A DNA stretch of 25,882 bases from an uncultured Deinococcales bacterium (GTDB lineage: Bacteria > Deinococcota > Deinococci > Deinococcales > JAAFIG01). Of the stretch, positions 658 to 25,096 are shown one piece after another; the stretch's first letter is position 1; each line of letters begins with the position of its first letter. Under the pieces are notes generated by a model. The model was not told the origin of the DNA and ran no database searches. It saw only the letters and a list, made by a program, of their open reading frames with translations. The position numbers and the translations under genes were made by a program. Where the stretch lies: the NCBI GenBank assembly GCA_964244895.1, contig CAXTKV010000053.1:1-25882 (forward strand), given 5' to 3'.

Positions 658-710
658 AACACCGTCCAGCACACACTTCTAAATTCGCGTGCCAGACGGT
701 GTTTCTCGAG
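658..710. repeat. Palindromic REP-like element, copy downstream of gltB
   Basis: AACACCGTCCAGCAC (658-672) and GTGCCAGACGGTGTT (689-703), followed by CTCGAG (705-710). Degenerate right arms also at about 456-470 and 553-570. Confidence 0.85.
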
Positions 711-719
711 GAATCTCTT

Positions 720-3700
720 TTACTCCGTGCTGACGCTCGCGTCCACCTGCTGGTTGGCGGGCACAACCATGCGGAAGTGCGCGGCGGGATCGACCAGCAA
801 CTCCGCGACGCGGCGCGCGGCATCGGATTGCTCGCTGTTGACCAGGGCTTCGTGGTACGCGCCCAGCAATTCGCGCACGTCACCGATGCCGTGATCGTTG
901 AGCTTGTAAAGCTTGACCAGCGCGCCTTTCGCCAGTCGGCGCTGAAGGGCCGCATCATCTAATCCCAGGCTCGGTTCATGGCGCAGGTAGACCACGCCGC
1001 CCGTCATGCCGCTGCAAATCCACGGCCCCGGATCGCCCAGCACGACCACGCGACCCATGGTCATGTACTCGAACGCGAAACCCTTGGCGTTGGCTCGGGC
1101 CGCCAGCATCCCGAGGTGGTCTTCCAGGGGTTTCTTGACCTCGCCGCCCAGCACCACGTCCGCGCCGGAAAGCCGGATGCAGAAGCGGCTATCCGCGTCG
1201 CCCTGCACGATGAACGATCCGCCGATCGCGCCGTAGCCGAAGCTCTTGCCGACCGATCCGTCCACGCGCACGCCCTGGTCGTTCAATCCCTTCAGCACGA
1301 CGACCTTGCCGCCGAACGATCCCTTGCCGACGCCGTCCTGCGCGCCGCCGTCGACCAGAATCTCGAGCTGATCGGTGTTGAAGGCGGCCAGACCGTTGCC
1401 GGGAATGCTGCCGGAATCGAAGTACAGTTTCGCCCGTTCGAGCTTCATCTTGGGGTCGTTCTTGCGGCGCGAAAGCTCACCGGTCAGGTGCGTGCCCAGA
1501 GCGCGGTCGGCGCTCTGCACGGGGCCGTCCTGGTAGACCAGGCGGTCTTCTCCGCTCACGGCGGCTTCCGTCAGCCAGCTCGAGACCATCCGGGTCAGGC
1601 TATTCAAGGGCTTGCGGATGATCCGGCCCGTGTCCTTGCTGGGCAAGGCCAGCGGTTCGATGTTCTCGAGCAAATACGCCAGGTCGAGCTTGTCCTTGTG
1701 GACGAACTGCGCCAGGTGTTCGACGCGCCCGACCATGTCCTGAAGGCGAGCGTACCCCAGGGTCGCGATCATGGCGCGAACCTCACTGGCCATACCGCTA
1801 AAGAACCGCATGAGTTGATCCACGGCGCGATCGTACTCGCGCGGAACCCAGCGCTTCATGCCCTTGTGGTCGGCCTCTTCCTGGGTTTCGACCTGCGTGG
1901 CGATACCGACGTGGCAGGTGTCCAGCTGGCAGCCGCGACAGATCGTGCAGCCGATGGCGGCCATCGGAACCGTGCCGAAGGCCACCCGGTTGGCACCCAG
2001 GCAGACCATCTTGATCACGTCCAGCGCGGTCTTCATGCCGCCGTCCACCCAGAGTTCGACCTTGTCGCGGATGCCCGCCGCGACCAGCGCACGGTGGGCG
2101 CGGCGCAAGCCCAGTTCGGCGGGCATGCCCGCATACTTGAGCGCGTGCGCTCGGGCCGCACCCGTGCCACCCTCGAAGCCGGAGAGGGTGATCACGTCGG
2201 CTCCAGCTTTAGCGATGCCGACGGCGATCGTGCCGATGCTGGGCACGACCGGCACCTTGACGCAGACCTTGGCATAGGGGTTGATGGTCTTCAATTCCTC
2301 GATCAGTTGCGCCAGGTCTTCGATGCTGTACAGGTCGTGGTTGTTGCTGGGCGAGATCAAGTCCACGCCCGGCACAGCGTGGCGAGCCTTAGCGACCTTC
2401 TCCGTGACTTTCGATCCGGGCAGGTGGCCGCCCTCGCCGGGTTTCGCGCCCTGACCGATCTTAATCTCGATGAACCCCGCCGAATTGAGCATTTCGCTCG
2501 AGACACCGAAACGACCCGAGGCGACCTGCTGACCGCGCCAGCGCACGTAGCGCCCGATCATATCGGCGATCTCGCCGCCCTCGCCGTTCATGGCGACCAT
2601 GTCCAGGCGCTTGGCGGCCTCCGGGTAGGCGCGGAAGGCGGTCTCACCCTGGGAGCCGAAGCTCATGCCGGAGATCACGAAGGGCAGGCTGTGCTTGCCC
2701 GCACTGATGTCGATCTCTTCAGAGAGGCGCTGTTCTTCTTCGGTCGATGGCCCTTCTAAACCCTTGACTTCTAAAAGGTTGCGGGCCGCGACCGGGAACT
2801 CGAGTTCCAGGCTTCGCACGCGGGCGGTGTAATCGCTGTGCGTGATCTCGCCGTTGGCGGCGGCGAAAACGTGCTTGTAGACGCGCGTGTTCAAGCGCGC
2901 GTCGCGTTGCAGGCTGGCCGCGCCGAGTTGCCACTGGTGGCGGCGATCCATCATGGTGGTCTCGAGTTCCGCCATGCCGTAGCCGTTCTTGTCCGAGGCC
3001 AGGAAGGATCGCACGCCCAACCTGTCAGCCAGGTCGGGCTTGAGGCCGATGGCGGCGAAGATCCGCCCGTAGCCGCGCAGTTCCGAGATGCCCATCGTGC
3101 TCATGACCTTCTCGCAGCCCTTGGTCAAACCGGACACGAGCTTGGCGGCGCGCTCCGTACCATTTTCTGCGGTGATGGGCGCGAACATGTCGAACATTAG
3201 CCAGGGTTCCACGGCGTCCGCTCCCAACCCCAGCATGACCATCACGTCGTGCAGGTTGCGGATCGCGCCGGAAGAAATGATCAGGCTGGTCGTGCGGCGC
3301 AACGAGACGCCCGCATCGGATCTCGCCTCGAGCGCGCGGTTGGCTTCCGCCACGGCCAGCGCCGGGTCAATCGGCACGTTGCCGGATTTGAACACGCCGC
3401 GATCCTCTAAAACGATCAGTTCCGCTCCTGCTTTCGCGGCGCCCACGACGGCCTCGCGCAGCCGATCCAGGGCTTTCTCGAGCGGTTCGCCGAAGCCGCC
3501 CTCGACCTCGCGTTCGGCGCGGATGTATGTCGTGGCCAGGGTTTCCTGGAGTTCCGCGATGGTTACGGTTCCGGCGGCCTTGGCGGTTTCCTCGTCCAGC
3601 GGCAAAATTGGCGTGATGATCTCGACCACCGTGCCGCCGTGCTTGCCATCGGGCAGGGCGCGCCGCCCGAGGATCACGCGGGTGCTGAACTGTTCGATCT

Positions 3701-5321
3701 CGCGCTCGCGGTCAATCGCGGGGTTGGTCACGACCGCGACGGTCTCTTTCATGAACTCCGCCAGGTTCGCTGCGGGTGCGCGCAGCGCGGCCAGCGGCCC
3801 GTCGAAACCCAGGCTCGAGATCGGCTCGTTGCCGCGCTCGGTGATGGCCTTGACGTACTCCTCGTCCCATTTTTCCCAGCCGAAGGCGGCTGGGGCGGCG
3901 CTCGATGGCGTGTGCATCTCGGCGCGTTCGGCTTCCGAAAAACGCTCGCGCGGGGTCGGGCGCTTCAACGGCCCGCCGATGTGGGCGCGCGCGCCGACCA
4001 TCACGGCCTCGCGGTTGTGGACGCGTTCCAGCAAGAGGCGCTGCGCCTCGTGATGCGGCATCGGTTGAACGCTGCCGGGGCGCATGGTGACGGCCATCTT
4101 CTCGCCGGGCGCGAGCGGCCTGGGATCGGTCACGAACGCACCCAATGGCAGCACGCCGCGCTCAGAAGACCAGAAGAATTCTTTTTCGGTTTCACCGAAC
4201 CACAAGGGGCGCAAGCCGAGCGCGTCCACAGAAAACGCACACTCGTTGCCGTGGCGCATGACGAGCGCCGCTGGCCCCTGCGCGAGCGGCCCGAAGGCTT
4301 GGCGCAAGCCCATGTACGTGTCCTGCAATGCGGGGCTGAAAGTCTTGATCTCGCCGAGCACGGGCGGGAAGGCCATCTCGAGCGCCTCGAACAGTGACAA
4401 TCCGTAGGCGTACATCACACCTTCCAGCACGCGGTTCAGGTCTTGCGAATCCGAACCGCCGGTCAGCGGGATGCCCAACTGTTCACCCTCGCGCCGCAGG
4501 CGTTCGATGGTGTTGATCTCGCCGTTGTGGCCGAGCAAACTGAAGGGCTGCACCTGTTCGAACGTGCTCATCGTGTTGGTGCTGTAGCGGTTGTGCCCGA
4601 CCGTGCTGACCGATTCAAAGTCTGGGCGGCGCAATTCCGGGTAGTACCGATCCAGAATTTCGGCGCTGCCGCGCACCTTGTACACGACCGCGTGTGTGGA
4701 TTGCGAGACGACGTGGACGGGCGTGTTCGTCTCGAGTTCCAGGTCGAGCTGAAACAACTTCCCGGCGCGTTCGTTGTCCGTTTCGCCCTCGACGATGCCC
4801 GCGACCTGGTAAAAGACGGGTTCCGTCAGGCTGGCCATCGGCCCCAGCACGCTGCTGTGGGTCTGACCGCGACGCTCCAACAGCACGCGCACGCCGTACT
4901 TTCCGGCGCGGGCGCGCAGGTGATCCAGCACGTCTCTGGGGTTGATGGAAACGGGAATGAAGTAATGACCGACGAAGAAACCGGGGTCATTCACCAGGTT
5001 GACCTCGAGCCCGGCCTGAGCGATCCATTCGCGCCAGAGTTTGCGCGGGATGTCCGTCATCACGCCGCAGCCGTCACCCTCGCCGCGCACCTCACCGGAA
5101 CGGTGCGCCATCTGCGAGAGCGCCTGGATGGCGCGTTTGACGTTGCCGTGCGTGGGCGTGCCGGTCTTGCGCACCGTCGCGATAATGCCGCAGGCGTCGT
5201 GACCGATGGGTTCACGCAGCGCGTTGGGGATGATTTTCTCGAGGCGCGCGCGTTCAGCTTGACGGTACAGGCTCCCCCGCTTCTGAGCATCGCGGTGCTG
5301 GACGGGCTTGGAATCGGTCAT
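720..5321 (-). CDS. gltB: Glutamate synthase large subunit
   Basis: N-terminal DACG (Ntn amidotransferase Cys), HNRYSTNT, HNGEINT, GMSFGS, QVASGRFGV, EIKIGQGAKPGEGGHLPG, Fe-S Cys cluster and GXGXG C-terminal domain (EYMTMG). Start placed at ATG 5321 behind GGAGGGAG; ATG 5342 is the alternative. Confidence 0.97.
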   Translation of the reverse strand: MTDSKPVQHRDAQKRGSLYRQAERARLEKIIPNALREPIGHDACGIIATVRKTGTPTHGNVKRAIQALSQMAHRSGEVRGEGDGCGVMTDIPRKLWREWIAQAGLEVNLVNDPGFFVGHYFIPVSINPRDVLDHLRARAGKYGVRVLLERRGQTHSSVLGPMASLTEPVFYQVAGIVEGETDNERAGKLFQLDLELETNTPVHVVSQSTHAVVYKVRGSAEILDRYYPELRRPDFESVSTVGHNRYSTNTMSTFEQVQPFSLLGHNGEINTIERLRREGEQLGIPLTGGSDSQDLNRVLEGVMYAYGLSLFEALEMAFPPVLGEIKTFSPALQDTYMGLRQAFGPLAQGPAALVMRHGNECAFSVDALGLRPLWFGETEKEFFWSSERGVLPLGAFVTDPRPLAPGEKMAVTMRPGSVQPMPHHEAQRLLLERVHNREAVMVGARAHIGGPLKRPTPRERFSEAERAEMHTPSSAAPAAFGWEKWDEEYVKAITERGNEPISSLGFDGPLAALRAPAANLAEFMKETVAVVTNPAIDREREIEQFSTRVILGRRALPDGKHGGTVVEIITPILPLDEETAKAAGTVTIAELQETLATTYIRAEREVEGGFGEPLEKALDRLREAVVGAAKAGAELIVLEDRGVFKSGNVPIDPALAVAEANRALEARSDAGVSLRRTTSLIISSGAIRNLHDVMVMLGLGADAVEPWLMFDMFAPITAENGTERAAKLVSGLTKGCEKVMSTMGISELRGYGRIFAAIGLKPDLADRLGVRSFLASDKNGYGMAELETTMMDRRHQWQLGAASLQRDARLNTRVYKHVFAAANGEITHSDYTARVRSLELEFPVAARNLLEVKGLEGPSTEEEQRLSEEIDISAGKHSLPFVISGMSFGSQGETAFRAYPEAAKRLDMVAMNGEGGEIADMIGRYVRWRGQQVASGRFGVSSEMLNSAGFIEIKIGQGAKPGEGGHLPGSKVTEKVAKARHAVPGVDLISPSNNHDLYSIEDLAQLIEELKTINPYAKVCVKVPVVPSIGTIAVGIAKAGADVITLSGFEGGTGAARAHALKYAGMPAELGLRRAHRALVAAGIRDKVELWVDGGMKTALDVIKMVCLGANRVAFGTVPMAAIGCTICRGCQLDTCHVGIATQVETQEEADHKGMKRWVPREYDRAVDQLMRFFSGMASEVRAMIATLGYARLQDMVGRVEHLAQFVHKDKLDLAYLLENIEPLALPSKDTGRIIRKPLNSLTRMVSSWLTEAAVSGEDRLVYQDGPVQSADRALGTHLTGELSRRKNDPKMKLERAKLYFDSGSIPGNGLAAFNTDQLEILVDGGAQDGVGKGSFGGKVVVLKGLNDQGVRVDGSVGKSFGYGAIGGSFIVQGDADSRFCIRLSGADVVLGGEVKKPLEDHLGMLAARANAKGFAFEYMTMGRVVVLGDPGPWICSGMTGGVVYLRHEPSLGLDDAALQRRLAKGALVKLYKLNDHGIGDVRELLGAYHEALVNSEQSDAARRVAELLVDPAAHFRMVVPANQQVDASVSTE

Positions 5322-5431
5322 CGGCACTCCCTCCTGGGACATTCCTGGGCTGTTCGGGTTGATGCAGCGTCAGTGGCGAAAATGGCTCGAGCCCGGAGCT
5401 TTCGGGCGTCGAGCCGCGGTGACGTCGGATG

Positions 5432-5461
5432 AGTATACGAAAATGCGGAATAACGAGTCAA
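5432..5461 (-). promoter_or_regulatory. Sigma70-type promoter for gltB
   Basis: Minus strand TTGACT-18 nt-TATACT. Confidence 0.7.
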
Positions 5462-5716
5462 TCGCGTTTCTGGGCGAAATGTCCCGACGGGCACGCGAAA
5501 AAGATTCTTTGCAGCTCGTGCTCAGTATTCACGAACGCTCGAGATCTTGCATTCGGTGGTCGTTCGTCGGGAAATTCGTGCAGCCCGAGAGAATCCAAAT
5601 CGGTTCTCGGAACCGCAGTCGTAGGTCGTGTCGCACGTCTACGTGAGGCTCACTCGAAGAATGTTCTCGAGTCGATCTGAACACTTCGACGACGCCCCGA
5701 GCGAGCCATAGGTCAG

Positions 5717-5798
5717 AGAACCGTACCAGCGCGATGAATTCTTGTTTTCGCCGTGCTGAACGGTGTTCTTGAAGACCGCAAGCACCGTCCTGTACGCG
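5717..5798. repeat. Degenerate REP-like arms upstream of the tRNA promoter
   Basis: AGAACCGTACCAGCGCG (5717), CGTGCTGAACGGTGTTCT (5752-5769), AGCACCGTCCTGTACGCG (5781-5798). Confidence 0.7.
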
Positions 5799-5866
5799 AA
5801 TTGATCGATAACACAAAAACAGTGTTCTGGTCGGTGTTCCTATCTGCTTCACCGCCTAAACCCGAG

Positions 5867-5895
5867 TTGACACGCCCAAACCGCGATGGTACATT
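5867..5895 (+). promoter_or_regulatory. Sigma70 promoter of the tRNA pair
   Basis: TTGACA-17 nt-TACATT with extended -10 TG. Confidence 0.85.
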
Positions 5896-5936
5896 ACGCC
5901 CTCGAGCGTCCGCGCTCGCGCCCATTTGGTCTGTCT

Positions 5937-6012
5937 GCCACCCTAGCTCAATTGGTAGAGCGCCCGATTTGTAATCGGAAGGTTGTCGGTTCGATTCCGA
6001 TGGGTGGCTCCA
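5937..6012 (+). tRNA. tRNA-Thr (TGT)
   Basis: Cloverleaf: acceptor GCCACCC/GGGTGGC, D arm GCTC/GAGC, anticodon loop TTTGTAA, T loop TTCGATT, encoded CCA. Confidence 0.96.
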
Positions 6013-6050
6013 GGTTCCACGCAGGATCCCGTTTGGCCGATGGTGGGTTC

Positions 6051-6136
6051 GGGTAGGTGCCCGAGTGGTTAAAGGGGACGGACTGTAAATCCGTTGGCTT
6101 ACGCCTACGATGGTTCGAATCCATCCCTGCCCACCA
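6051..6136 (+). tRNA. tRNA-Tyr (GTA)
   Basis: Acceptor GGGTAGG/CCTGCCC, anticodon arm ACGGA-CTGTAAA-TCCGT, long variable arm, T loop TTCGAAT, encoded CCA. Confidence 0.97.
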
Positions 6137-6140
6137 CGAG

Positions 6141-6168
6141 AACGCCCCCGCACCAATCGGGGGCGTTT
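6141..6168 (+). terminator. Hairpin terminator after tRNA-Tyr
   Basis: AACGCCCCCG-caccaat-CGGGGGCGTT followed by only a short T run. Confidence 0.7.
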
Positions 6169-6245
6169 GCCATTGTCACGGCTTCTGTACTTCTCGCGAT
6201 CGTGCGGCCTCGAGTCTCCTTTCGAGATCGTGAAAGAAGCGATTT

Positions 6246-6287
6246 GCGTGCTGGACAGTGTTTTTCTAGCGAACACCGTTCAGCGCG
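6246..6287. repeat. REP-like element with arms in reversed order
   Basis: GCGTGCTGGACAGTGTT (6246-6262), then GAACACCGTTCAGCGCG (6271-6287). Confidence 0.8.
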
Positions 6288-6401
6288 GTGTCTGTGTATG
6301 GCTCGAGCCCGAGGCGCACGTTTTGACTCGAGGCTGATGATCTTTAGCAACCAATCTAACGGTTCAGATCAAATCAGTTAGCAGTATTTGTTATTCAGGA
6401 C

Positions 6402-6431
6402 TTGACATTTCGCCAGAAGTGATCCTAAGAT
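6402..6431 (+). promoter_or_regulatory. Sigma70 promoter for the SHOCT-like/DUF2089 operon
   Basis: TTGACA-18 nt-TAAGAT, with an AT-rich region upstream. Confidence 0.7.
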
Positions 6432-6487
6432 TCTTCAAACGAACGGCGAAAACCGCCAAGGGTCTGAAAACCCGCGAAAGGAGCACC

Positions 6488-7354
6488 ATGACCGCCAACG
6501 AACGAACCCGCGTCCTCGAGATGGTCGCCAAGGGAACCATCAGCATCGAACAAGCAGATCAACTGCTTGAGGCGCTGGAAAGTGCAAACAGGCGAAGTGA
6601 CGTATCGGAAACGCCGGAGGCACCAGCGGAGGACGAATCCTGGAAACGCTCTGGGCCGAACTGGGCGCGCAATGCGCAGCAATGGGGACGTTTTGGGCAA
6701 GAGTTCGGGCGCAGATTCAACCAACCGCCCGAGCCACCGCATCCGCCCACCATGCCCAGACCGCCGCGCCCACCGCGCCCACCGCGCCCACCTCGAGCCC
6801 CAAAGGGCGTGGGGGGCGGCAAGCTCAGCTTCGAGCAGATGATCGAACTGGGCAAATTTGGCATCAGCGCGAACTTCGTGCGGCAACTCGGAGAAGCCGG
6901 ACTGAGCGAGCTCTCGTTCGACGAAATCATCGAGCTGGGCAAGTTCGGGATCGACGCGGATTACGTGATCGAATTGCGAAAACTGGCCGATGAAATGGGA
7001 TCGGGCGAGTTGACGGTGGATCGGATTATCGAGCTGGGCAAGTTCGGTGTGAACCCCGAAAACGTGCGCGAGATGCTCCAGAGCGGATTGTTCGACCTGA
7101 GCAAGATGACCGACCGCGACGTGGAACGCCAGGATCGCAGGCGCGCGAGGGTCGAGGCGAAACTGGCCAAAATCCACACCAGGCTCGAACACACCGGCAC
7201 CGAGCGCGACCGGCAAAAACTCCGCGAGATGGCGCAAGAACTTCAGGATGAGCTCGAGGAAGTCGAAACCATGCGCGCGGAAATCGAGAAAGAGGTCGAA
7301 ACCGATGCCGAACTTCGAGCTGACGCGCCTGAAACCGAGCGCGACCAGGCGTGA
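6488..7354 (+). CDS. Protein with N-terminal SHOCT-like domain, Pro-rich linker, three helical IELGKFG repeats and a C-terminal coiled coil
   Basis: ATG 6488 behind AAGGAG. ERTRVLEMVAKGTISIEQADQLLEAL matches the YvlB/LiaX-type N-terminal SHOCT-like motif; PPR repeats; three copies of L(S/T)xxxxIELGKFG(I/V). Confidence 0.85.
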   Translation: MTANERTRVLEMVAKGTISIEQADQLLEALESANRRSDVSETPEAPAEDESWKRSGPNWARNAQQWGRFGQEFGRRFNQPPEPPHPPTMPRPPRPPRPPRPPRAPKGVGGGKLSFEQMIELGKFGISANFVRQLGEAGLSELSFDEIIELGKFGIDADYVIELRKLADEMGSGELTVDRIIELGKFGVNPENVREMLQSGLFDLSKMTDRDVERQDRRRARVEAKLAKIHTRLEHTGTERDRQKLREMAQELQDELEEVETMRAEIEKEVETDAELRADAPETERDQA

Positions 7355-7740: not shown

Positions 7741-7844
7741 GCGTTTCGCCCTGAATCGGGAACGGTATCTCGAGATCGCGTTTCGAGCGCGACGAAAGCC
7801 TTACGCGCCACGCGAAAGCGTAAACCCTGAAGGGCTGCCGTGCA

Positions 7845-7876
7845 CACTCCGTCTCGAAAGCACTCCGTCTCGAAAG
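7845..7876. repeat. 16-bp tandem duplication
   Basis: CACTCCGTCTCGAAAG twice, at 7845-7860 and 7861-7876. Confidence 0.9.
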
Positions 7877-8031: not shown

Positions 8032-8085
8032 CTCGAGAACACCGTCCAGCACCCATTCATAATCTCGCGTGCTGGACGGTGTTCT
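8032..8085. repeat. REP-like element, best-preserved copy
   Basis: CTCG, then AGAACACCGTCCAGCAC (8036-8052), a 16-nt loop and GTGCTGGACGGTGTTCT (8069-8085): a perfect 17-bp inverted repeat. Confidence 0.95.
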
Positions 8086-8091
8086 GAGCGC

Positions 8092-9547: not shown

Positions 9548-9640
9548 GTTGAGAGCCTACTCGTGTGGCACGCGAAAAAACGTACTGACCCGTACTCGAA
9601 TAACGTTCCTGGCTCACACTCGAGAAGCGCATTTCACACG

Positions 9641-9696
9641 GACACCGTCCAGCAGGCATCTCTCGAGATCGCATCTCTCGCGTGCTGGACGGTGTC
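9641..9696. repeat. REP-like element
   Basis: GACACCGTCCAGCA (9641-9654) and TGCTGGACGGTGTC (9683-9696), a perfect 14-bp inverted repeat. CTCGAG lies in the loop and on both flanks. Confidence 0.92.
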
Positions 9697-9716
9697 GTTC
9701 ATGCTCGAGAAATCAG

Positions 9717-9961: not shown

Positions 9962-11311
9962 ATGGATTTGAAACCCTTCATCGCGCAGGCCAAAGAAGAC
10001 CTCACGAAGCTCGTGGCGCTCGAGAGCGTCAGCGCACAGGGGCGGATGCTGCCTGAAACCGCCGCCTTCGTGACGGCCTTGCTGACTGCCGAAGGCTTCA
10101 GCGTCAGGTCGTATCCGGGTCAGACCGCGCCGATCCTGGTGGCGGAAGCCGGGAACGGCCCGCGCACGATGCTGATCTACAACCACTACGACGTGCAACC
10201 CGAATCGCCCTTGGACTTGTGGAAATCCCCGCCGTTCACGCTGACGGAGCGCGCCGATTCGGACGGTGTTCTTCGATGGTTCGCGCGCGGCGTCAGCGAC
10301 GACAAGGGCGAGCTGATCTCGAGACTGGCGGGCTTGCGGGCGCTCAAAGCCCAGAATGGCGGAACGCTTCCGCTGAACATCAAATGGTTGATCGAGGGCG
10401 AAGAAGAGATCGGCAGCCCGAGCTTGGAGCACTTCGTGAGCGAACACGCGGGCGAGCTTCAGGCGGACGGCTGCTGGTGGGAGTTCGGCAGTTTCGACCC
10501 GGAAGGCCGCCCGGTGCTGTACGCGGGTTTGAAGGGCATCATCTGCCTGGAATTGCGCTCCAGGACGGCGGATTCTGATCTGCATTCCGCCAACGGAGCC
10601 GTGGTGGACAACCCGCTCTGGCGGCTGGCCAAGGCCGTGGCCTCCATGCGCGACGAGAACGGGCGCGTCACGATAGCGGGTTTCCACGACGATGTTCGCC
10701 CGCCGTCCGCGACCGACCTGGAGTACGTGGCGCGCATCCCGGATGAGTCCAAGGCGCTCCAGAAGGCCTACGGCATCAAAGGATTCCTGGAGAACGCCTC
10801 GGGCGCCAGGTTTTACCAGCGCGCCGACCTGGAACCCGTGCTGAACGTCAACGGTTTTCACGGCGGTTACGGCGACGCGGGTTCCAAGACGGTGCTGCCC
10901 GCTTCGGGCTTCGTCAAGCTGGACTTTCGGCTCGTGCCGGATCAGAAACCGGGGCGCATCGTGGAACTTCTCAGGGCGCACCTGTCCAGCATCGACCTGG
11001 CCGATATCGAAGTCTTGGAACTCGAGACGCACGAGAACCCGGCGCGCAGCGACCTGAACCACCCGTTCATGAAGATCGCCATAGAAACCGCGCGCGACGT
11101 TCACGGCAAGGAACCAGTCGTCCACCCCAGTTCGGGCGGTTCCGGCCCGATGCACCCGTTCATCGAATCCGTCGGCGTGCCGGTCGTGGCGGCGGGCATC
11201 GGCAACATTCAGGGTTTCGTTCACGCGCCCAACGAGAACATCGTGGTCGAGCATTTCGAGAAAGGTGTGGCCTACGCGCTGGAATTTTTCTCTCGGGTCG
11301 CCAGGATGTAA
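9962..11311 (+). CDS. M20 family metallopeptidase (dipeptidase/ArgE/DapE-like)
   Basis: YNHYDVQP, ARGVSDDKG, IEGEEEIGS, DLHS, DFRLVP, HAPNE; ATG 9962 lies 5 nt after TATCGT. Confidence 0.95.
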   Translation: MDLKPFIAQAKEDLTKLVALESVSAQGRMLPETAAFVTALLTAEGFSVRSYPGQTAPILVAEAGNGPRTMLIYNHYDVQPESPLDLWKSPPFTLTERADSDGVLRWFARGVSDDKGELISRLAGLRALKAQNGGTLPLNIKWLIEGEEEIGSPSLEHFVSEHAGELQADGCWWEFGSFDPEGRPVLYAGLKGIICLELRSRTADSDLHSANGAVVDNPLWRLAKAVASMRDENGRVTIAGFHDDVRPPSATDLEYVARIPDESKALQKAYGIKGFLENASGARFYQRADLEPVLNVNGFHGGYGDAGSKTVLPASGFVKLDFRLVPDQKPGRIVELLRAHLSSIDLADIEVLELETHENPARSDLNHPFMKIAIETARDVHGKEPVVHPSSGGSGPMHPFIESVGVPVVAAGIGNIQGFVHAPNENIVVEHFEKGVAYALEFFSRVARM

Positions 11312-11370
11312 AGACCGTCCCAGACTGTGTTCGCCGCGATCAGAATACTGCGTGCCGAACGGTGTTCTCG
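11311..11370. repeat. Degenerate REP-like element after the peptidase stop
   Basis: AAGACCGTCCCAGAC (11311-11325) and GCGTGCCGAACGGTGTTCTCG (11350-11370). Confidence 0.75.
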
Positions 11371-13172: not shown

Positions 13173-13230
13173 GGCTGCAATTCAACCCGTCGGGGCGATC
13201 GATTGGTCGTCCCGGCGTTTCACCACAAAG

Positions 13231-13287
13231 ACCGTTCAGCACGCAAAATTCAGAGATATGAGCGACACCGTCCCAGACGCTCTCGAG
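13231..13287. repeat. Two REP-like left arms between the binding-protein and permease genes
   Basis: ACCGTTCAGCACGC (13231-13244) and GACACCGTCCCAGACG (13264-13279), then CTCGAG. Confidence 0.7.
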
Positions 13288-14347: not shown

Positions 14348-14351
14348 AGTC

Positions 14352-14532
14352 GCCGCGAGCCGCGAGCCGCGAGCCGCGAGGAAAACCTCTGAGCAATCGG
14401 TTCTGAACGCAGGAGCATCGTCCAGGACAGCCTTCTCGAGTGTGCCTCATTTGGCGCGCAGGCCGGTCTTCCCAAGTTACAACCCCACGCCTCGCGCTGT
14501 TGCCTCGCGGCTCGCGGCTCGCGGCTTACGGC
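14352..14532. repeat. MITE-like insert bounded by inverted heptamer arrays
   Basis: (GCCGCGA)x4-GG at 14352-14381 and CC-(TCGCGGC)x3-TTACGGC at 14503-14532; internal degenerate REP arm AGCATCGTCCAGGAC (14414-14428) and CTCGAG (14435). Confidence 0.85.
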
Positions 14533-14550
14533 CACCATTCGGGGCCAACC

Positions 14551-16637: not shown

Positions 16638-16666
16638 CGGCGAACGCAACCAGGGTTTCAAGTTAC

Positions 16667-16713
16667 AACACCGTCCTGGGCAGTATTCGATAAATCACGT
16701 CCAGGACGGTGTT
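16667..16713. repeat. REP-like element between convergent genes, compensatory variant
   Basis: AACACCGTCCTGG (16667-16679) and CCAGGACGGTGTT (16701-16713). Confidence 0.9.
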
Positions 16714-16763
16714 TTTGAAGGCAGTTCGTACTGAAAAAGTATCTGTCTCGAGAAAACCCATCC

Positions 16764-17117: not shown

Positions 17118-17130
17118 GGGGTTCTCCTTT

Positions 17131-18516: not shown

Positions 18517-19144
18517 GTTTTCTCGGCGTCCTGACGCGTTTCTCGAGCGGTACGGATTCAGCCCGAGAGGCGATGTCCTGGCAGGCGGGTTGCTCGGGCA
18601 GGCTGCGTTCCTGGCGCAAGCGCTCGAAGGCGGCGCGGGTGCGCGGGTGGACGGGCTTGCCACGGCTTTCCAGGTACGTGACCTTGCAAAAGAGTGCTTC
18701 GGCGTAAGCGCCTTCCAGGTCGGTGAAGGCCAGTTCGCGAATGTGATGGTTGACGCCGCGACCGGGTTCGGACACATCCGCGACGTACACGGCCAGCGCA
18801 ATGCGGTTGCCGCCGCGCGGCCCGGTGACGTGATCCTCGACGGCCTCGAGCACTTCGGCGTCCTCGAAGCCCTCAGATTCCAGGATGGCGCGGGCGGCCC
18901 GACCGTGGAGCGCCATCGGGTGTCCGGCGTCCAGCTCTGATTCGGGCGGCGCGAGGCGCAGGAGTTCATCTGCGGGCAGGTCTCGAGCCAGGTCGTGCAG
19001 GATGCCCGCCAGGTAGGCGCGTTCGGCATCCAGGCCGTTGGCGAGCGCGATCTCTCGAGCCAGATCGGCCACGCGCACGATGTGCTCGAAGCGGGCGACC
19101 TTGACGTTGCCGCGAACCCGTTCAGTCCAGCCTTCGAGGGTCAC
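18491..19144 (-). CDS. yqeK: HD-domain Ap4A hydrolase YqeK
   Basis: RFEHIVRV, AGILHDLAR, LHGRAA, VYVADVSEPGR; adjacent to nadD and rsfS as is usual for this family. Confidence 0.92.
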   Translation of the reverse strand: MTLEGWTERVRGNVKVARFEHIVRVADLAREIALANGLDAERAYLAGILHDLARDLPADELLRLAPPESELDAGHPMALHGRAARAILESEGFEDAEVLEAVEDHVTGPRGGNRIALAVYVADVSEPGRGVNHHIRELAFTDLEGAYAEALFCKVTYLESRGKPVHPRTRAAFERLRQERSLPEQPACQDIASRAESVPLEKRVRTPRKHAGLRSSS

Positions 19145-19157
19145 GGTGAGACCTGAA

Positions 19158-19220
19158 GCGCGCTCAACGGTGGAAGTCGCGCGGTCAACGGTAGAGGTCG
19201 CGCGTTTAGCGGTAGAGTTC
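19158..19220. repeat. Three imperfect 21-bp tandem copies spanning the nadD stop codon
   Basis: GCGCGCTCAACGGTGGAAGTC / GCGCGGTCAACGGTAGAGGTC / GCGCGTTTAGCGGTAGAGTTC. Confidence 0.85.
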
Positions 19221-19868
19221 GAATCGTTTGAGATAGTCCGCCACGCTCCTCGGCACCAGGTATTCGATTGGGGCTTCGATCCCGACCCGCCGACGGATCT
19301 CGCTCGAGGAGACCGCCACGCCGGGCCAGCTCACGACGGTGGTCGGGGAATCCGACCTGAGACTGGAATTATAGTCACTGCCCGATTCGGTCTTGGTGAA
19401 GTCCGTCTCGGAATTCTTCACGTTTCCGGGTTTTTCGGTGAATCCCACCCGTTCGACCACGATGATTCGCGCCAACACCAGGATGTCGTCGATCGCGCGC
19501 CACTGTTCCAGCGTGCGGGCCGCGTCCGTGCCGACGATCAGGTGCAGTTCCGCTTCCGGCTCAAGCGCCTGCAAACGCCGCAAGGTTTCGACCGTGAAGT
19601 GCGGGCCGGGCGCGTCCAGTTCCAGCCGCGTGGCTTCCAGAACGCCACCCTGAACGAAGGGCGATTCGAGCGCCGCCAGACGGGTCATCTCGAAGCGGTG
19701 TTCTGCGGAAGCGACGGGCTTCTTGTGGGGCGGTTGACCCGTGGCGGACAACATCACTTTCTCGAGCCCGACCTGGTAGGCGCTTTCGATGGCTGCACCG
19801 AGGTGACCCCAGTGGATCGGATCGAATCCGCCACCCATCAATCCGATTTTTCGGTTCGATTTCGGCAT
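19206..19868 (-). CDS. nadD: Nicotinate-nucleotide adenylyltransferase
   Basis: GGGFDPIHWGH, PPHK, FTVETL, LIVGTD, VSSSEIRRR; start ATG 19868 (TTG 19877 is the alternative). Confidence 0.95.
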   Translation of the reverse strand: MPKSNRKIGLMGGGFDPIHWGHLGAAIESAYQVGLEKVMLSATGQPPHKKPVASAEHRFEMTRLAALESPFVQGGVLEATRLELDAPGPHFTVETLRRLQALEPEAELHLIVGTDAARTLEQWRAIDDILVLARIIVVERVGFTEKPGNVKNSETDFTKTESGSDYNSSLRSDSPTTVVSWPGVAVSSSEIRRRVGIEAPIEYLVPRSVADYLKRFELYR

Positions 19869-19880
19869 GATCCTCAAACC

Positions 19881-21317
19881 TTACCGTGCAGGACGGTCTT
19901 CACTGACGGAAATACTGTCTGGAAAGGTTTCCTCGGGGATTTCGGCTTCTGGGTCATCTTTGGGTTCGTAATCCAGGTAGTAGCTGCGCGGCACGTGTTC
20001 TTCGGGTTCCTGGGCTTTTTTCTCGAATTCGTCGTCGAAGTATTCGAAAGCGAACGCGCCGATCTGAACGGTGTCCTTGGCCCTGACGCCGGCGCGTTTG
20101 AGGGCGTTGTTCAGACCCTGGCGGGCGAAGTATTCCTCGAGGTACTCGGCGGCGTCGTCCAGGTGGCGCGCGAACCTCGAGACTCGAGCCTCGAAACCGC
20201 CGCCCGTGACCGCCCAGGTGCGCGTGCCGTCCTCGTGCGTTTCCAGGAGCGCGGCTCGCACGGGTTCGGGGCCTTGCACGATCTCGGGTTCGGCCAGGCT
20301 GGCGCGTTCGGGCCGCGCGGGCAGCAGGTCGAAGATCAGCGTTCTGAGTTCATCCAGACCTGTTCGGTTCATGGCGGAAATCCCGACGACCGGCAAGCCG
20401 AAACCCGCGAGTTCGTCGATCACCATCGATTGAACGTCGGCCTCGATCAGGTCGGTCTTGTTGAGCGCGATCAGCGCAGGATTGTCCAGCAAACTCGGGT
20501 CGTACTCGCGGACTTCGGCGCGAAGTTTCTCGAGTTCGACCGCCGGATCTTGATCGGCGGCCAGCACCCAGATCAGCAATCGCGTGCGCGAGATGTGCCG
20601 CAGGAATTCGAGCCCGAGGCCCTTGCCCTGCGACGCGCCCTCGATGATGCCGGGAATGTCCGCCATCGTGAAGCGCGTCTGCTCTTCGGCGGTGAAGGTG
20701 CTTCGTTCTCGCGTCACCACGCCCAGGATCGGCGAGAGCGTCGTGAACGGGTAGGCCGCGACTTCCGGGTTGGCGTTGGAGAGCGCTTTTAAAAGGCTGG
20801 ATTTCCCCGCGTTCGGGTAACCGACCAGGCCCACGTCCGCGATCAGGCGCAGCTCGAGCCTGAGTTTGCGCACTTGCCCCGGCACGCCGAGTTCCGCGAA
20901 GCGCGGCCCCTGGCGTCTGGACGTCGCGAAGACGCTGTTGCCGCGTCCACCCTCGCCACCTCTGGCGACCAGCGCCAGTTCTCCGACGTGAACGAGATCC
21001 GCCACGATCCGTTCGCTGCTCGCGTCGATCGCGACCGTTCCGATCGGCACGTCGATGTACACGTCCTGGCCGTCGCTACCGGCCTTCAAGCGGCCCGAGC
21101 CGTAATCGCCGTTGCTGGCCTTGTATTTGCGCTTGCCGACCAGCGAATCCAGGCTTTCGACCCCGCCGACCGCGCGCAAATAGATGCTGCCGCCCTTGCC
21201 GCCGTGCCCGCCGTCCGGGCCGCCCTTGGGGATGTACTTCTCGCGGCGGAACGACATCGAGCCGTCCCCGCCGTTCCCGGCGGACACTTGAATCTCGAGC
21301 ACGTCACGAAAAGGCAT
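19881..21317 (-). CDS. obgE: GTPase Obg/CgtA
   Basis: [44 protein letters not shown] and a C-terminal OCT domain; ATG 21317 behind GGAG. Confidence 0.98.
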
Positions 21318-21334
21318 TTGAGCTCCTGGTCTAA

Positions 21335-21382
21335 AGAACACCGTCTGGGACGATGTTCTCAATCTGCGTGCTGGACGGTCTC
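21335..21382. repeat. REP-like element between rpmA and obgE
   Basis: AGAACACCGTCTGGGACG (21335-21352) and GCGTGCTGGACGGTCTC (21366-21382). Confidence 0.85.
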
Positions 21383-21390
21383 GGGGGACG

Positions 21391-21429
21391 AAAAAGCCTC
21401 GCGCTCGAGACGACGCTCAACCGCGAGGC
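21391..21429 (-). terminator. Intrinsic terminator after rplU-rpmA
   Basis: Minus strand GCCTCGCG...CGCGAGGC followed by TTTTT. Confidence 0.75.
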
Positions 21430-21444
21430 CGAGAAAGCGAAACT

Positions 21445-21747
21445 TCAATCGTCGGCGGCTTCGGGCGCGGCAACGGGCGCAGCACCTTCGCTCGCCAAAG
21501 GCTCGACCGAGATGAAGCGGCCCATCTTACCCTTGTCCGCGAACTTGACGATGCCGTGCTCGAGCGCGAACAGCGTGTGGTCGCGGCCCATGCCGACGTT
21601 GGCACCGGCCTGGAATTTCGTGCCGCGCTGGCGAACCAGGATGTTGCCCGCCAGGACTTTTTCGCCGCCGAACTTCTTGACGCCGAGGTACTTCGGGTTG
21701 GAGTCGCGTCCGTTCTTGGACGAACCCACGCCTTTCTTGTGTGCCAT
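21445..21747 (-). CDS. rpmA: 50S ribosomal protein L27
   Basis: [16 protein letters not shown]...[10 protein letters not shown]...GRDHTLFAL. Confidence 0.99.
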
Positions 21748-21779
21748 GTCAGTTCACCTTTTCGTTGAAAGTGGGGGGC

Positions 21780-22079
21780 TTACTTGACCGACGTGATCTT
21801 GACGTCGGTGTAGGCCTGACGGTGGCCATTGCGGCGGCGGTACTGGATGCCAGACTTGTACTTGTCGACGTAGATCTTGTCGCCCTTGACGTGGCGCACG
21901 ACCTGGGCAGCCACCTTGATCTTGGCCGCGTCGCCCGCGACCTTGAGGGCTTCCCCACCGACCAGCAGGCTGGTGAATTCGAGGGCCGCGCCCGGTTCGA
22001 GCTTGAGTTTCTCGACGCGAATGGTGTCGCCTTCATTAACTCGGTACTGCTTTCCGCCCGTCTGAATGATCGCAAACAT
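21780..22079 (-). CDS. rplU: 50S ribosomal protein L21
   Basis: [14 protein letters not shown]...GHRQAYT; ATG 22079 behind GGAGG. Confidence 0.99.
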
Positions 22080-22149
22080 CGTTTCCTCCGACGGGCGCGA
22101 GTGGTTGTGCTCGTTTCCCGTAAATCGCCCCGATGGGGCAAGCCGTGAA

Positions 22150-22178
22150 AGTGTAGCACGCCTTTGGCGCTTCCTCAA
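22150..22178 (-). promoter_or_regulatory. Promoter of the rplU-rpmA operon
   Basis: Minus strand TTGAGG-17 nt-TACACT with extended -10 TG. Confidence 0.75.
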
Positions 22179-22264
22179 GCCCATTCCTGCGGCGCGTTCA
22201 AGCCCATTCCTGCGGCGCGTTCAAGCCCATTCCTGCGGCGCGTTCGAGCCCAGTGCCGTGGCGC
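22175..22264. repeat. 23-bp tandem repeat, three perfect copies plus one degenerate
   Basis: TCAAGCCCATTCCTGCGGCGCGT at 22175, 22198 and 22221; TCGAGCCCAGTGCCGTGGCGC at 22244. Confidence 0.95.
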
Positions 22265-22285
22265 ACCAGCTCGAGCCGCTCTCAG

Positions 22286-22345
22286 AGAACACCGTTCAGG
22301 ACACGCTTTTTGACAACTCGAGAATCGCGTCCATCACGGTCTTCT
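22286..22345. repeat. Degenerate REP-like element
   Basis: AGAACACCGTTCAGGAC (22286-22302) and CGCGTCCATCACGGTCTTCT (22326-22345), with CTCGAG in the loop. Confidence 0.75.
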
Positions 22346-22360
22346 TGAAAGCCGTTCGCT

Positions 22361-23239
22361 TCAACGCGCGTGCGGGGCTTGGCGAACCGCCTCGAGCACC
22401 CAGTCGTGGCGCGGGCTCAAGCCGGACTTTCGGACTTTCTCGCGCACCGTCTGGCAGCGGCAACCGCTGTAACTGCACAAAAGCGCTTCCGGGTTGTGGT
22501 TGAGCATCGCGATGGTGGTGTCCACCACGTCGCGCACGCGCATTCTGGACACGACCGCCTTGCCGACATCGATGGTTTCCAGCGTCTGAAGCCGACCCTG
22601 AATCGCGTTGAAGGCCGCCGAGCAATTCGGAAAGTACGTGTGCTGCACACCGTCCACTGATGACACCCAGCGATCCAACAATGGTCTACCCGCCAGGTAT
22701 TCGCCGTAATGGATGGTCGTGTTGGAACGGTGATCCACACCCAGCAGGATCACGTCGGCGTCCAGCGCGTACAGCGCGCCGATGGGGCCGTATGGGTTCT
22801 CGAGGCTCTGCGCGTCCAGCACGTGGTGATCGTGCGGCCCGAGCGCGATGAACGAGAGCGCCGGGTGATTTGAGCGCCGGGGCGCGAACCGATCCAGCAT
22901 CATCTGCGAAACCTTGCCGATGTCCGGGCTGACCGGCGAATCCGGTCGGAAGCGCGGCCCGTCGGTGGGCAGGTTTTTGGGCCAGTCCGCTTGGCGCTGA
23001 CTGACCGGCCAGGCCAGCGTGTAGTACGTGAAGGCGGGCATCACGACCGTGGCCACGCGCCGCCTGAGCGTCTCCAGGATCGTCGGTGCGCCGCCGGAGA
23101 GGTAGCCGAAGGAACTCAGGCTCGAATGGACGATGGCATCCTTTGTGCCATCCAGACCGAGCAACCCGAGCGCACGATCGAGCTCGCCGGGGTTGACCGG
23201 GCCGCTCCAGGCGCGTCGCACGAAGTTCAGCATGCCCAC
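22361..23239 (-). CDS. AAC(3)/YokD-like N-acetyltransferase family protein
   Basis: IVHSSLSSFG..GGA, VMPAFT, RSNHPALSF, LLGVDHRSNTTIHYGE, C-terminal LLCSYSGCRC; TAGTCT 5 nt upstream of GTG. Confidence 0.9.
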   Translation of the reverse strand: MGMLNFVRRAWSGPVNPGELDRALGLLGLDGTKDAIVHSSLSSFGYLSGGAPTILETLRRRVATVVMPAFTYYTLAWPVSQRQADWPKNLPTDGPRFRPDSPVSPDIGKVSQMMLDRFAPRRSNHPALSFIALGPHDHHVLDAQSLENPYGPIGALYALDADVILLGVDHRSNTTIHYGEYLAGRPLLDRWVSSVDGVQHTYFPNCSAAFNAIQGRLQTLETIDVGKAVVSRMRVRDVVDTTIAMLNHNPEALLCSYSGCRCQTVREKVRKSGLSPRHDWVLEAVRQAPHAR

Positions 23240-23401
23240 GCCTCAGACTAACATCGCGCCGCGTTTTCAGCCGTTCATTCAGCGATCCTGCGCGACGCAC
23301 ACGAGGCTTGAGACCAGCGCAGCACCGGCCAACCCAGCGATGGATGCGGACTGAACGATCCAGTTTTCTCGAGCGCAGATAAAAACCGATCTGTACCCAC
23401 G

Positions 23402-23426
23402 AAAAAAGCCCGAGCGTTTCTCGGGC
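23402..23426 (-). terminator. Intrinsic terminator
   Basis: Minus strand GCCCGAG-aaacg-CTCGGGC-TTTTTT. Confidence 0.85.
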
Positions 23427-23447
23427 TGAGCGCTCAGGAAAGCGGGT

Positions 23448-23672
23448 TCAATCGTAGTTGATGTGCATCATGTACAGGCTGATGCCGATGGTCACGAGCG
23501 TCGCCGCGATCTTGGCGATCATCGCTTCGGCGGACATTTCGCGCTTCGGGAAGAGGCTGTCGAACCACCAGTAGACCGTCAGGGCCAGCAGGCCGATGCC
23601 GACCAGCCAGCCGACCAGCGTGGGAACGTCCTTCGGGTGATTCAGGAACGGCAGTTTGAAGGGAACTTGCAT
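23448..23672 (-). CDS. Small hypothetical membrane protein (two TM helices, 74 aa)
   Basis: MQVPFKLPF... with two hydrophobic helices; TATGCT 6 nt upstream of ATG 23672; terminator directly downstream. Confidence 0.8.
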   Translation of the reverse strand: MQVPFKLPFLNHPKDVPTLVGWLVGIGLLALTVYWWFDSLFPKREMSAEAMIAKIAATLVTIGISLYMMHINYD

Positions 23673-23830
23673 GCGCGGAGCATACCAAAATCCGGCGCGA
23701 CAGATGACCCGCCCCTTGGGTGCGCCGGAAGCTCGAGGAACATCGCGTGCGGCGCGCTCCGAACGCACTCGAGCTGTTCGGTGCATCCGATCGCGCTCGA
23801 GGAACCCTTTCTGGACAGCCAAATAGCGCA

Positions 23831-23885
23831 TTCACACGGCGTTCACCCGCCGATCCAGCACCGTTCACCCGCCCGCGCCTAGCTT
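23831..23885 (+). promoter_or_regulatory. 11-bp-periodic TTCAC direct repeats upstream of a -10-like TAGCTT
   Basis: TTCAC at 23831, 23842 and 23864 (weak slot at about 23853); CGTTCACCCGCC repeated at 23840 and 23862; TAGCTT at 23880-23885. Confidence 0.6.
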
Positions 23886-23933
23886 GATTTCAAGCGTTCG
23901 GCACAGTCCGAGCGCACCAAGGAGGCAAGGCAT

Positions 23934-24428
23934 ATGTGGCACTACGGTATGGCTCCCATGATGGGCTTCGGTTTCGGATTCTTGAACTTCATCGGCACGA
24001 TCCTGTTCTTCGTGTTCTTGTTCGGGCTGTTGCGGATGTTCTTCCGTGGTTGGCGGCACGCGGGCATGGGTCGCGGCGGCATGGGTGGAAACGGCTGGGG
24101 CGGCCCGTGGATGGCCCGAGGCATGGGTCAAGGCTGGGGTCGGCACGGTTGGGGCGGCATGATGGGCGGCTGGAACGGTCGCGACGATGCGCTCGAGACG
24201 GCCCGCGAGCGCCTGGCGCGTTCGGAGATCACGCCCGAGCAGTTCGAGACGATCAAAAAGGGGCTCGAGACGCGCCGCCAGCGCGAGGAGAATCAATCCT
24301 GGGAGCAACCCTGGCGCGGCCTGATGGGCGGCAAGGACGACGCGCTCGAGACGGCTCGCTTGCGCTTCGCCAAGGGCGAGATCAGCGCCGAAGAGTTCGA
24401 GATGATCAAGCGCGCCCTCGAGAACTGA
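23934..24428 (+). CDS. Membrane protein with a Gly/Met/Trp-rich linker and two SHOCT domains
   Basis: AGGAGG RBS; TM helix; DDALETARERLARSEITPEQFE and DDALETARLRFAKGEISAEEFE. Confidence 0.9.
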   Translation: MWHYGMAPMMGFGFGFLNFIGTILFFVFLFGLLRMFFRGWRHAGMGRGGMGGNGWGGPWMARGMGQGWGRHGWGGMMGGWNGRDDALETARERLARSEITPEQFETIKKGLETRRQREENQSWEQPWRGLMGGKDDALETARLRFAKGEISAEEFEMIKRALEN

Positions 24429-24478
24429 GTGCCCGAGAACTGAATGCCCGAGAACTGAATGCCCGAGAACTGAGTGCG
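24419..24478. repeat. Four 15-bp tandem copies spanning the SHOCT gene stop codon
   Basis: CGAGAACTGA(A/G)TGC(C/G) at 24419, 24434, 24449 and 24464. Confidence 0.95.
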
Positions 24479-24519
24479 GTTCGTATCAACGGAAAACGCG
24501 GTTCGATTCTGGCTCGCGT

Positions 24520-24573
24520 CTCGAGAACACCGTCCGGCACGCACAGATAAGGATGTGTGCTGGACGGTGTTCT
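24520..24573. repeat. REP-like element
   Basis: CTCG, then AGAACACCGTCCGGCACGCA (24524-24543) and TGTGTGCTGGACGGTGTTCT (24554-24573): a 20-bp stem with two G-T pairs on the + strand. Confidence 0.95.
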
Positions 24574-24645
24574 GGGCAGCCGCACGGTTAACGCGGCTCA
24601 CCTTCGGTCAACGGGCTTCGCAACGCATCTCAATGGAGGCTGATC

Positions 24646-25011
24646 GTGTCCACCACCGCTCCCACCCCGAGCCCGCTCGCCCCGATGACCGTCTTCATGC
24701 TCGTCAGGACGACGAATGCTTGGCTCGCGTTGTCCCCAAAAGAACGTTTCGCGTTTCTGGGAACGACGATTCAACCGATTCTCGAGAAACGCTCAAAAGT
24801 CAGCCTCCGGTTCTTCGACGCAGAAGCGTTCTCGGCGCAGGTGACCGACGTGCTGGTCTGGGAAAGCCCTCAACTCGCCGAGTACCAGGCGGTGATCGAA
24901 GACCTGCGTGAGACCGCCTTCTGGGGGGTGTACTTCGAGATCGTCAGCATCATTCCCGCGATCGAGAACGCCTACGCGTCCCACTACGGGGTCAGCCCGG
25001 TCGGTTCGTAG
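24646..25011 (+). CDS. Darcynin-family protein
   Basis: GGAGG RBS with GTG start; FMLVRTTNAWLALS..ERF, LRFFDAEAFSA..TDV, LRETAFWG.YFEI. Confidence 0.85.
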   Translation: MSTTAPTPSPLAPMTVFMLVRTTNAWLALSPKERFAFLGTTIQPILEKRSKVSLRFFDAEAFSAQVTDVLVWESPQLAEYQAVIEDLRETAFWGVYFEIVSIIPAIENAYASHYGVSPVGS

Positions 25012-25045
25012 AAACCAAAGCGCCAGGATCTTCTCGCACGAGAGG

Positions 25046-25096
25046 CACCGTCCCGGACGCATCCCCAAGAATACCGTCCGGAACGGTATCCTCGAG
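25046..25096. repeat. Compact, degenerate REP-like element
   Basis: CACCGTCCCGGACG (25046-25059) and AGAATACCGTCCGGAACGGTATCCTCGAG (25068-25096). Confidence 0.7.

Follow-up and report, generated by a model that had tools for sequence, protein, structure and literature searches.

The genome that contains the window (the whole stretch of 25,882 nucleotides analysed here) carries a family of 25-bp dyads, found mostly between genes as pairs with two main centre spacings, a full helical turn apart. Dispersed palindromes are usually classed as REP-like hairpins. The one-turn ladder seen here is a physical hallmark of proteins that bind to duplex DNA, and this ladder, together with the origin in place of units inside genes, points to protein binding on double-stranded DNA. 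The elements are probably binding sites of this kind, and about half of that confidence extends to a role in uptake or recombination. The best explanation, held tentatively and at less than even confidence, is that of a genome-wide self mark, read by a protein and propagated through biased uptake or recombination, and it is ranked ahead of a structural or termination landmark and of a mobile relic.

A high-copy family of phased dyads

The window is contig C53 of genome G000, an assembly of 5.12 Mb in 328 contigs that is 91% complete and from which even the ribosomal L14 gene is absent. The original prediction had placed palindromic arms at about 13 intergenic loci of the window; all 13 carry units, and one further locus (19878-19902) is added here. 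With up to 3 mismatches allowed, the window holds 18 matches to the 17-mer arm; 0.09 are expected, and 0 of 100 shuffles reach 18. An Rfam scan returned two tRNAs and otherwise no match. The loci are the following.

656..705, no strand assigned: paired element, centres 668 and 693, 25 bp apart, behind the glutamate synthase stop
5745..5840, no strand assigned: three-unit cluster, centres 5757, 5791 and 5828, gaps of 34 and 37 bp, upstream of tRNA-Thr/Tyr
6240..6294, no strand assigned: two units, centres 6252 and 6282, 30-bp minor class, downstream of tRNA-Tyr
8036..8085, no strand assigned: paired element, 25-bp class, convergent junction, RNA fold of -39.5 kcal/mol (z -7.4)
9639..9698, no strand assigned: paired element, 35-bp class
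11309..11368, no strand assigned: paired element, 35-bp class, at the M20 peptidase stop, weak left unit
13226..13286, no strand assigned: two same-orientation units, centres 13238 and 13274, 36 bp apart
14412..14472, no strand assigned: degenerate (weak) paired element, 36-bp class
16665..16715, no strand assigned: paired element, 26-bp class, convergent junction behind rsfS
19878..19902, no strand assigned: single unit, centre 19890, over the obg gene end, overlooked in the original prediction
21335..21384, no strand assigned: paired element, 25-bp class, between rpmA and obg
22286..22345, no strand assigned: paired element, 35-bp class, upstream of rplU
24524..24573, no strand assigned: paired element, 25-bp class, position retained in a sister lineage
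25042..25092, no strand assigned: paired element, 26-bp class, position retained in a sister lineage

The Obg protein encoded here has its best match in 1udx, a Thermus protein, in keeping with a Deinococcales label; the bacterium is probably a relative of Deinococcus.

Genome-wide, the arm occurs in 285 exact and 634 one-mismatch copies, against 0 in a shuffle, and has 6,110 matches above 12 bits, against 46. With an iterated profile, 2,009 paired elements were recovered, in line with the earlier guess of hundreds or more copies, and the unit centres number 5,039 (about 5,000 units). The elements total about 110 kb, or 2% of the genome, with a median distance of 1.8 kb between them, and 2,008 of the 2,009 full sequences are distinct, without master copies. 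That the family would be lineage-specific, high-copy and intergenic is borne out by the paired pattern, which has 912 matches in this genome and 0-1 per genome in 363 others from the phylum, a level like that of the reversed control. Small repeats of Deinococcus have been described in older work. In the literature searched, at the level of accessible text, no account of the dyad family or of the post-tRNA dyad treated below was found. How novel the family is may depend on the CGTC consensuses of PMC3733652, whose accessible text makes no mention of Deinococcus, Thermus or Truepera, and on the repeat tables in PMC11893778 and PMC12306157.

The arm forms the outer portion of a dyad of 25 bp, AGAACACCGTC-NNN-GACGGTGTTCT, in which the inner half is frequently relaxed. 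Each unit has a 9-7-9 layout, that is, a dyad with a variable centre and arms of equal length, and in the position matrix the information fades at the element ends. In 1,766 of the 1,971 pairs within 60 bp, the centres are spaced by 25/26 bp (853 + 139) or 35/36 bp (566 + 208), while minor peaks at 30/31 and 40/41 bp hold 88 pairs and the gaps between peaks are near-empty. The 35/36 peak is also present among unit pairs in the same orientation. Moreover, spacers of 16 (n=903), 17 (n=160), 26 (n=564) and 27 nt (n=214) make up 1,841 of the 2,009 elements, so the earlier description of loops of varied length does not hold. A one-turn spacing ladder is the classic mark of two dimers cooperating on duplex DNA, and the pairs of 25-bp dyads would then be cooperative sites for a putative dimer-of-dimers protein. 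Half sites arranged tail to tail outside the called units show no 14-16 nt peak. The spacer consensus is specific to the class; also, since spacer similarity exceeds Markov nulls (100 identical 12-mer pairs against 8-60), the copies may descend from few founders.

Gene ends, hairpins and mobility

According to the gene calls made for this analysis (4,478 genes), 1,926 of the 2,009 elements (96%) are intergenic, and only a few hundred of the roughly 5,000 units are coding. Short divergent junctions are avoided and convergent ones favoured, an element being present in 64-79% of convergent against 3-49% of divergent spacers of at least 40 bp. This placement is compatible with an explanation that we consider possible but on the whole unlikely, in which the dyads would be double-stranded sites for a protein that organises the nucleoid, insulates or assists termination where transcription units end, each site being kept by ordinary selection. 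The convergent bias agrees with such a protein, as do the occurrence of elements singly at junctions (of 455 long co-directional spacers, 304 have one and 19 have two), the closeness to stop codons (in long convergent spacers, 62% lie no more than 25 nt away, against 20% expected) and the ancestral form behind tRNA genes. Phased dyads would suit a bending tetramer, for which lambda CI and LysR/OxyR provide analogies. Nonetheless, many elements sit within operons, where a roadblock would harm, and units in genes alter amino acids. Also, no enrichment is found behind highly expressed genes, ranked by a self-built expression proxy, but rather a dip (0.44 for the top 3% against 0.60-0.65); element frequency increases with codon typicality. 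If this structural reading were true, it would point to a sequence-specific chromosome protein not known before.

Among the operators of Deinococcus, the RDRM of DdrO (PMC8533742) is likewise an odd-length dyad from the same order, sometimes with two per promoter. However, in the accessible text of that source it has another consensus and about 40 sites located at promoters, whereas the dyad elements avoid divergent promoter regions; identity with the RDRM is ruled out on consensus and position.

Whichever strand is taken, the elements fold well as RNA. As originally observed, a poly-T tail is mostly absent, at least 6 T being present at the 3' end in 3-9% of elements depending on class and context, and the 17 terminator-like sites detected between 5400 and 25300 include no element. 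On the transcribed strand, G-U and A-C mismatches are equally frequent (403 vs 407 in 413 elements, and 296 vs 282 in a second set of 279), as compared with 6 vs 0 in 46 control terminators, a small positive control. The rare U tails and the equality of G-U and A-C speak against intrinsic terminators for the paired elements, whose orientation is independent of transcription (173:170). Arm-to-arm covariation is restricted to the 16-nt class, where it is strongest at gene ends (z ~10), with none in the 17, 26 and 27 classes. It may reflect a secondary hairpin role or hairpin-templated correction; some secondary hairpin role would fall to the 25-bp class near gene ends.

Regarding mobility, the original prediction of a REP/MITE-like family was upheld in one part, by signs of past insertion at operon junctions, and not supported in the other, mobilisation by a RAYT, as judged from the lack of master copies and of target duplication, the fuzzy ends and the filled state of 4/4 orthologous sites. 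The sole RAYT-like gene of the 91%-complete assembly (contig C12, 52.6 bits with the NCBIfam model, under the cut-off of 80, and overlooked by the Pfam Y1_Tnp search) is not flanked by the dyad arms, as had been suggested for a mobiliser, but flanked and interrupted by a separate family of GTAG-tagged REPs. The nearest strong dyad pairs are at about 1.5 kb from this gene, and a weak coding unit is at about 0.5 kb. The GTAG family comprises 97 hairpins, 49 of them distinct, with as many as 11 identical copies and with spacers in common. It provides an internal control of a true REP/RAYT system alongside the dyads.

In the accessible text of PMC3733652, GTAG REP/REPIN and CGTC REPs resemble the dyad elements as intergenic palindromes, mostly dimers, near stop codons and at convergent or co-directional junctions. 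They differ in that the dyads have no unpaired terminal tag, identical copies or shared spacers, and show phased spacing and origin in place. The position matrix bears no GTAG at either end, which speaks against GTAG REP/REPIN. Similarly, NTS/SRM repeats with the Ssn GIY-YIG single-stranded DNA nuclease, linked to transformation in the accessible text of PMC11893778, are high-copy hairpin repeats containing CGTC, but there the oriented CGTC tag lies outside the stem and the repeats cluster around genes. Here CGTC lies inside the paired stem, internal to the arms as the original prediction had it, and not in an unpaired terminal position next to a stem of 8-9 bp with a 4-5 nt loop and a CCA tail, as would be required of those families. 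Compared with their accessible description, the elements do not fit the CGTC REP and NTS-Ssn families in tag position. The only GIY-YIG match in G000 falls within a UvrC-sized 613-aa frame common to the family; a small single-domain GIY-YIG (Ssn) gene flanked by the repeat was not found in the 91%-complete assembly. IS110 likewise has no match in G000.

No k-mer excess indicative of target duplication was detected for k 2-8 with 9 end definitions, although old duplications could have decayed. The lack of sharp terminal inverted repeats and of target-site duplication speaks against a MITE. Integron attC sites have a fixed polarity to the gene, extrahelical bases and an arrangement in cassette arrays; they are discarded here on the 173:170 orientation, the equal-length arms and the location in core operons.

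An ancient REP/MITE-like element, now immobile and kept as RNA or single-stranded DNA hairpins that protect 3' ends, its mobiliser lost or unassembled, is a further explanation, conceivable but again improbable. The strong hairpins, the covariation of the 16-nt class, the class-specific spacer consensus and junction expansions as small as 58-63 bp that are filled by the element speak for it, as does the REP-like placement (PMC3733652, accessible text), and a mobiliser may be missing from a 91%-complete assembly without L14. However, it is unlikely that four founder lengths would fall on a helical ladder whose gaps are nearly empty, and the missing covariation in the 17, 26 and 27 classes, the absence of a G-U preference and of target duplication, and the codon bias at unpaired coding sites disagree with such a relic. 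Also, the true GTAG REPs of this genome look different.

Origin, retention and distribution

A low-copy precursor is traceable behind tRNA genes. The perfect single dyad occurs in 0-9 copies per genome in 60 relatives, at least one being present in 32 of them, and of 20 places fetched out of 43 (symmetric ones favoured), 16 directly follow a tRNA called by ARAGORN and a further 3 follow tRNA-like 3' ends recognised by eye. At tRNA loci taken without bias, a dyad is present in 5/30 in relative G006, one of them with a 16-nt-class interior, and in 2/30 in G044. Also, in G000 a single T-tailed unit comes after several of the tRNAs, and lone post-tRNA dyads often have T tails. Since both the relatives and G000 carry dyads behind tRNAs, the unit likely derives from a post-tRNA terminator dyad.

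Several post-tRNA dyads in relatives adjoin integrase-like ORFs, as seen by eye, which would fit tandem tyrosine-recombinase sites (attC-, dif- or att-like) that dispersed from integrative elements located at the 3' ends of tRNAs. The 9-7-9 dyad with its variable centre and the 9 integrase matches over cut-off in G000 are in keeping with this origin. Nevertheless, it is very improbable: other post-tRNA dyads are beside core genes, the elements show no polarity to genes and no extrahelical bases and lie in conserved core operons, and the genome would be scrambled if thousands of sites were live.

Inside genes, strong units number 88, against 8-16 after synonymous shuffling (5-10x). Codon choice leans to the motif, and does so at unpaired sites as well in 4/5 tests; for example, GGT in V-x-D-G-V is used at 10/28 unpaired sites against 44/391 controls (p 0.001), three control contexts being null. 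An alignment to a relative, within 1.6 Mb of relatives' DNA, was obtained for 41 of the 267 coding sites, with a local identity of 0.46 vs 0.59. A net insertion of at least 5 aa is found in 0/35 aligned single units, many of which are weak and some presumably due to chance, and the 8 scoring at least 20 differ by 0-1 aa. In aligned paired coding units such an insertion is found in 4/6. The two units of MiaA come with no indel against 17 orthologues, and coding units change amino acids. An LpxD-like protein is 3-6 aa longer. Over-representation of a palindrome in place, including in genes, is also known for HIP1 of cyanobacteria; unlike the dyads, HIP1 is 8 bp long and unpaired.

Junctions were compared with 820 kb of G006 as the single outgroup (92 conserved gene pairs). 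Where they are tight in G006, 19/39 are longer by at least 45 bp here, 15 of them with units, as compared with 1/20 grown in the reverse direction. For G006 spacers of at least 40 bp, element-bearing junctions grew no more than others (22 vs 20, p 0.81). Insertion of unit-bearing DNA in this lineage would be the simpler reading of junction growth. Taken together, the alignments indicate that single units inside genes apparently arise by substitution, and that insertion at junctions would also have happened long ago.

A comparison of presence and absence among relatives, put forward in the original prediction as a check, revealed no empty site: all 4/4 orthologous sites compared are filled, few sites being comparable. 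A contig from run X1 (about 92% identical, 50 differences in 674 nt) keeps the elements at 24524 and 25042. Moreover, two sister-lineage metagenome contigs, which were found by carrying an element, have the same site and size class at 80% and 68% identity, with diverged spacers.

Beyond these lineages, the 820 kb of G006 contain no second dyad family, with 4 arm matches above 16 bits. Look-alikes in G276 and G278 were dismissed as a hint of a cognate gene, being hairpins behind tRNA-Lys or a remnant of it, with 33-bp spacing. A half-unit search of family f2 gave about 100 matches in 63/128 genomes, mostly coding chance among the 30 loci viewed; this tally, in which G327 is counted, supports no claim made here. 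Viral scans returned 0, 8, 2 and 2 loci, of which the 8 resemble chance coding matches, and a scan of a wider genome collection gave at least two matches among those listed, both chance-like.

Within G000, 42 element-poor contigs (461 kb) hold 11 elements in 133 kb of intergenic DNA against 1,998 in 880 kb, a descriptive contrast, as these contigs are defined by the counted feature itself. They have atypical codons and encode RepA, conjugation (plasmid), defence and catabolic functions. An excess of CTCGAG is found family-wide; its density is equal on the element-poor contigs, which separates it from the dyad elements.

A possible genome-wide self mark

In the preferred explanation, the unit would have begun as a post-tRNA terminator dyad and spread long ago, through insertion of unit-bearing DNA at gene ends and through point substitution. 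A putative reader would use the elements as a self mark, most likely in DNA uptake or homologous recombination, and DNA carrying the element would be favoured, a molecular drive like that proposed for uptake sequences. The growth of junctions (15/39 with units) requires an efficient insertion route, and uptake drive names none.

In the accessible text of PMC2397512, PMC2817400 and 10.1101/2025.10.24.684340, uptake sequences are evenly spaced, core-biased, absent from foreign DNA, arise in permissive codons and pair at gene ends. The DUS of Neisseriaceae and the USS of Pasteurellaceae resemble the dyad elements in their thousands of copies every ~1-2 kb, inverted intergenic pairs at gene ends, core-genome bias, absence from recently gained DNA and origin in place in permissive coding positions. 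However, known uptake sequences are non-palindromic and 34-65% coding (PMC2817400, accessible text), whereas here a 25-bp palindrome is helically paired, mostly intergenic and accompanied by signs of insertion.

A more ambitious version, which we regard as doubtful, holds that the dyads are a self signal for uptake or recombination of a third, independent kind: a tetrameric reader would have taken over a tRNA-terminator dyad common to Deinococcales, whose copies then rose to about 5,000 within a single genus, driven in the form of helically phased pairs that invaded many operon junctions and rewrote codons. If the self mark were true, uptake-sequence biology would reach a new phylum with a new architecture; under either this or the structural reading, the origin and persistence of high-copy bacterial repeats become directly testable.

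Counted against the self mark are the palindromic, mostly intergenic nature of the elements, their hugging of stop codons, the 16-nt covariation and the spacer similarity. Also counted against it, no reader was found, the search for a ComP_DUS domain giving no match with a positive control that was also silent, and competence genes are common to element-free relatives. On the other hand, the ladder, the retention in place, the lack of RNA-strand bias, the substitution origin in coding sequence, the absence from accessory DNA, the lack of enrichment behind highly expressed genes, and the 1.8-kb spacing are counted in its favour, along with the presence of ComEC, 7 helix-hairpin-helix matches over cut-off, and a pilin gene that is among the most codon-optimised of the genome.

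Dyads beside tRNA genes and on a viral contig

Across Deinococcales, many different tRNA genes are followed by a dyad with the core CCGTC-N3-GACGG (stretches L118-L137 and L172-L231), the free positions of which vary symmetrically, and several of these dyads are adjoined by integrase-like ORFs. Moreover, in genus g46, toxin-antitoxin-like gene pairs, read by eye, form arrays (L022:1-4770 and L021:1-3140), with tRNA-Lys and tRNA 3' remnants as boundaries and an element-like hairpin at each of them.

In G000, the genome of the window, a second tRNA set of about 26 calls forms a single array (contigs C151:8000-11700 and C178:10380-10620), some of its tRNAs being separated by elements. A comparable tRNA array is observed near 4.06 Mb in G006, the genome of a relative. 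Also, two related dyads lie 164 bp apart on a 190-kb viral contig (L169:2330-2570), and behind each of them comes a promoter-like pair on the other strand, an arrangement that resembles two small RNA genes.

RAYT-like gene and GTAG repeats

A RAYT-like HUH gene is located in G000 at C12:40618-41188 (L276:4165-4686), with one GTAG REP upstream and another within the gene, in frame. Genome-wide, about 97 GTAG hairpins are found in G000, many of them being REPIN-like dimers with shared spacers.

Other features of the window

14349-14384 and 14500-14535: tandem repeats of a heptamer, inverted relative to each other, flanking on both sides the weak element at 14412
22152-22264: 23-nt tandem repeat
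22361-23239, minus strand: gene with a domain of the aminoglycoside 3-N-acetyltransferase family
24419-24477: 15-nt tandem repeat

Comparison with the related contig from run X1 reveals that the 15-nt array is missing there.

HU-like genes, helix-hairpin-helix proteins and genome-wide features

Three HU-like genes, read by eye, are present in G000 (C10:5198, C103:16593 and C117:13596), along with five or more small helix-hairpin-helix proteins that are exported, not counting the comEA-like one. The ribosomal L14 gene was not found in the G000 assembly, which probably means that the main operon of ribosomal-protein genes is missing from the assembled contigs. Finally, every family sample (L003-L020 and G000) has a CTCGAG density of 2-8 per kb, the value for G000 being 4.3 per kb.
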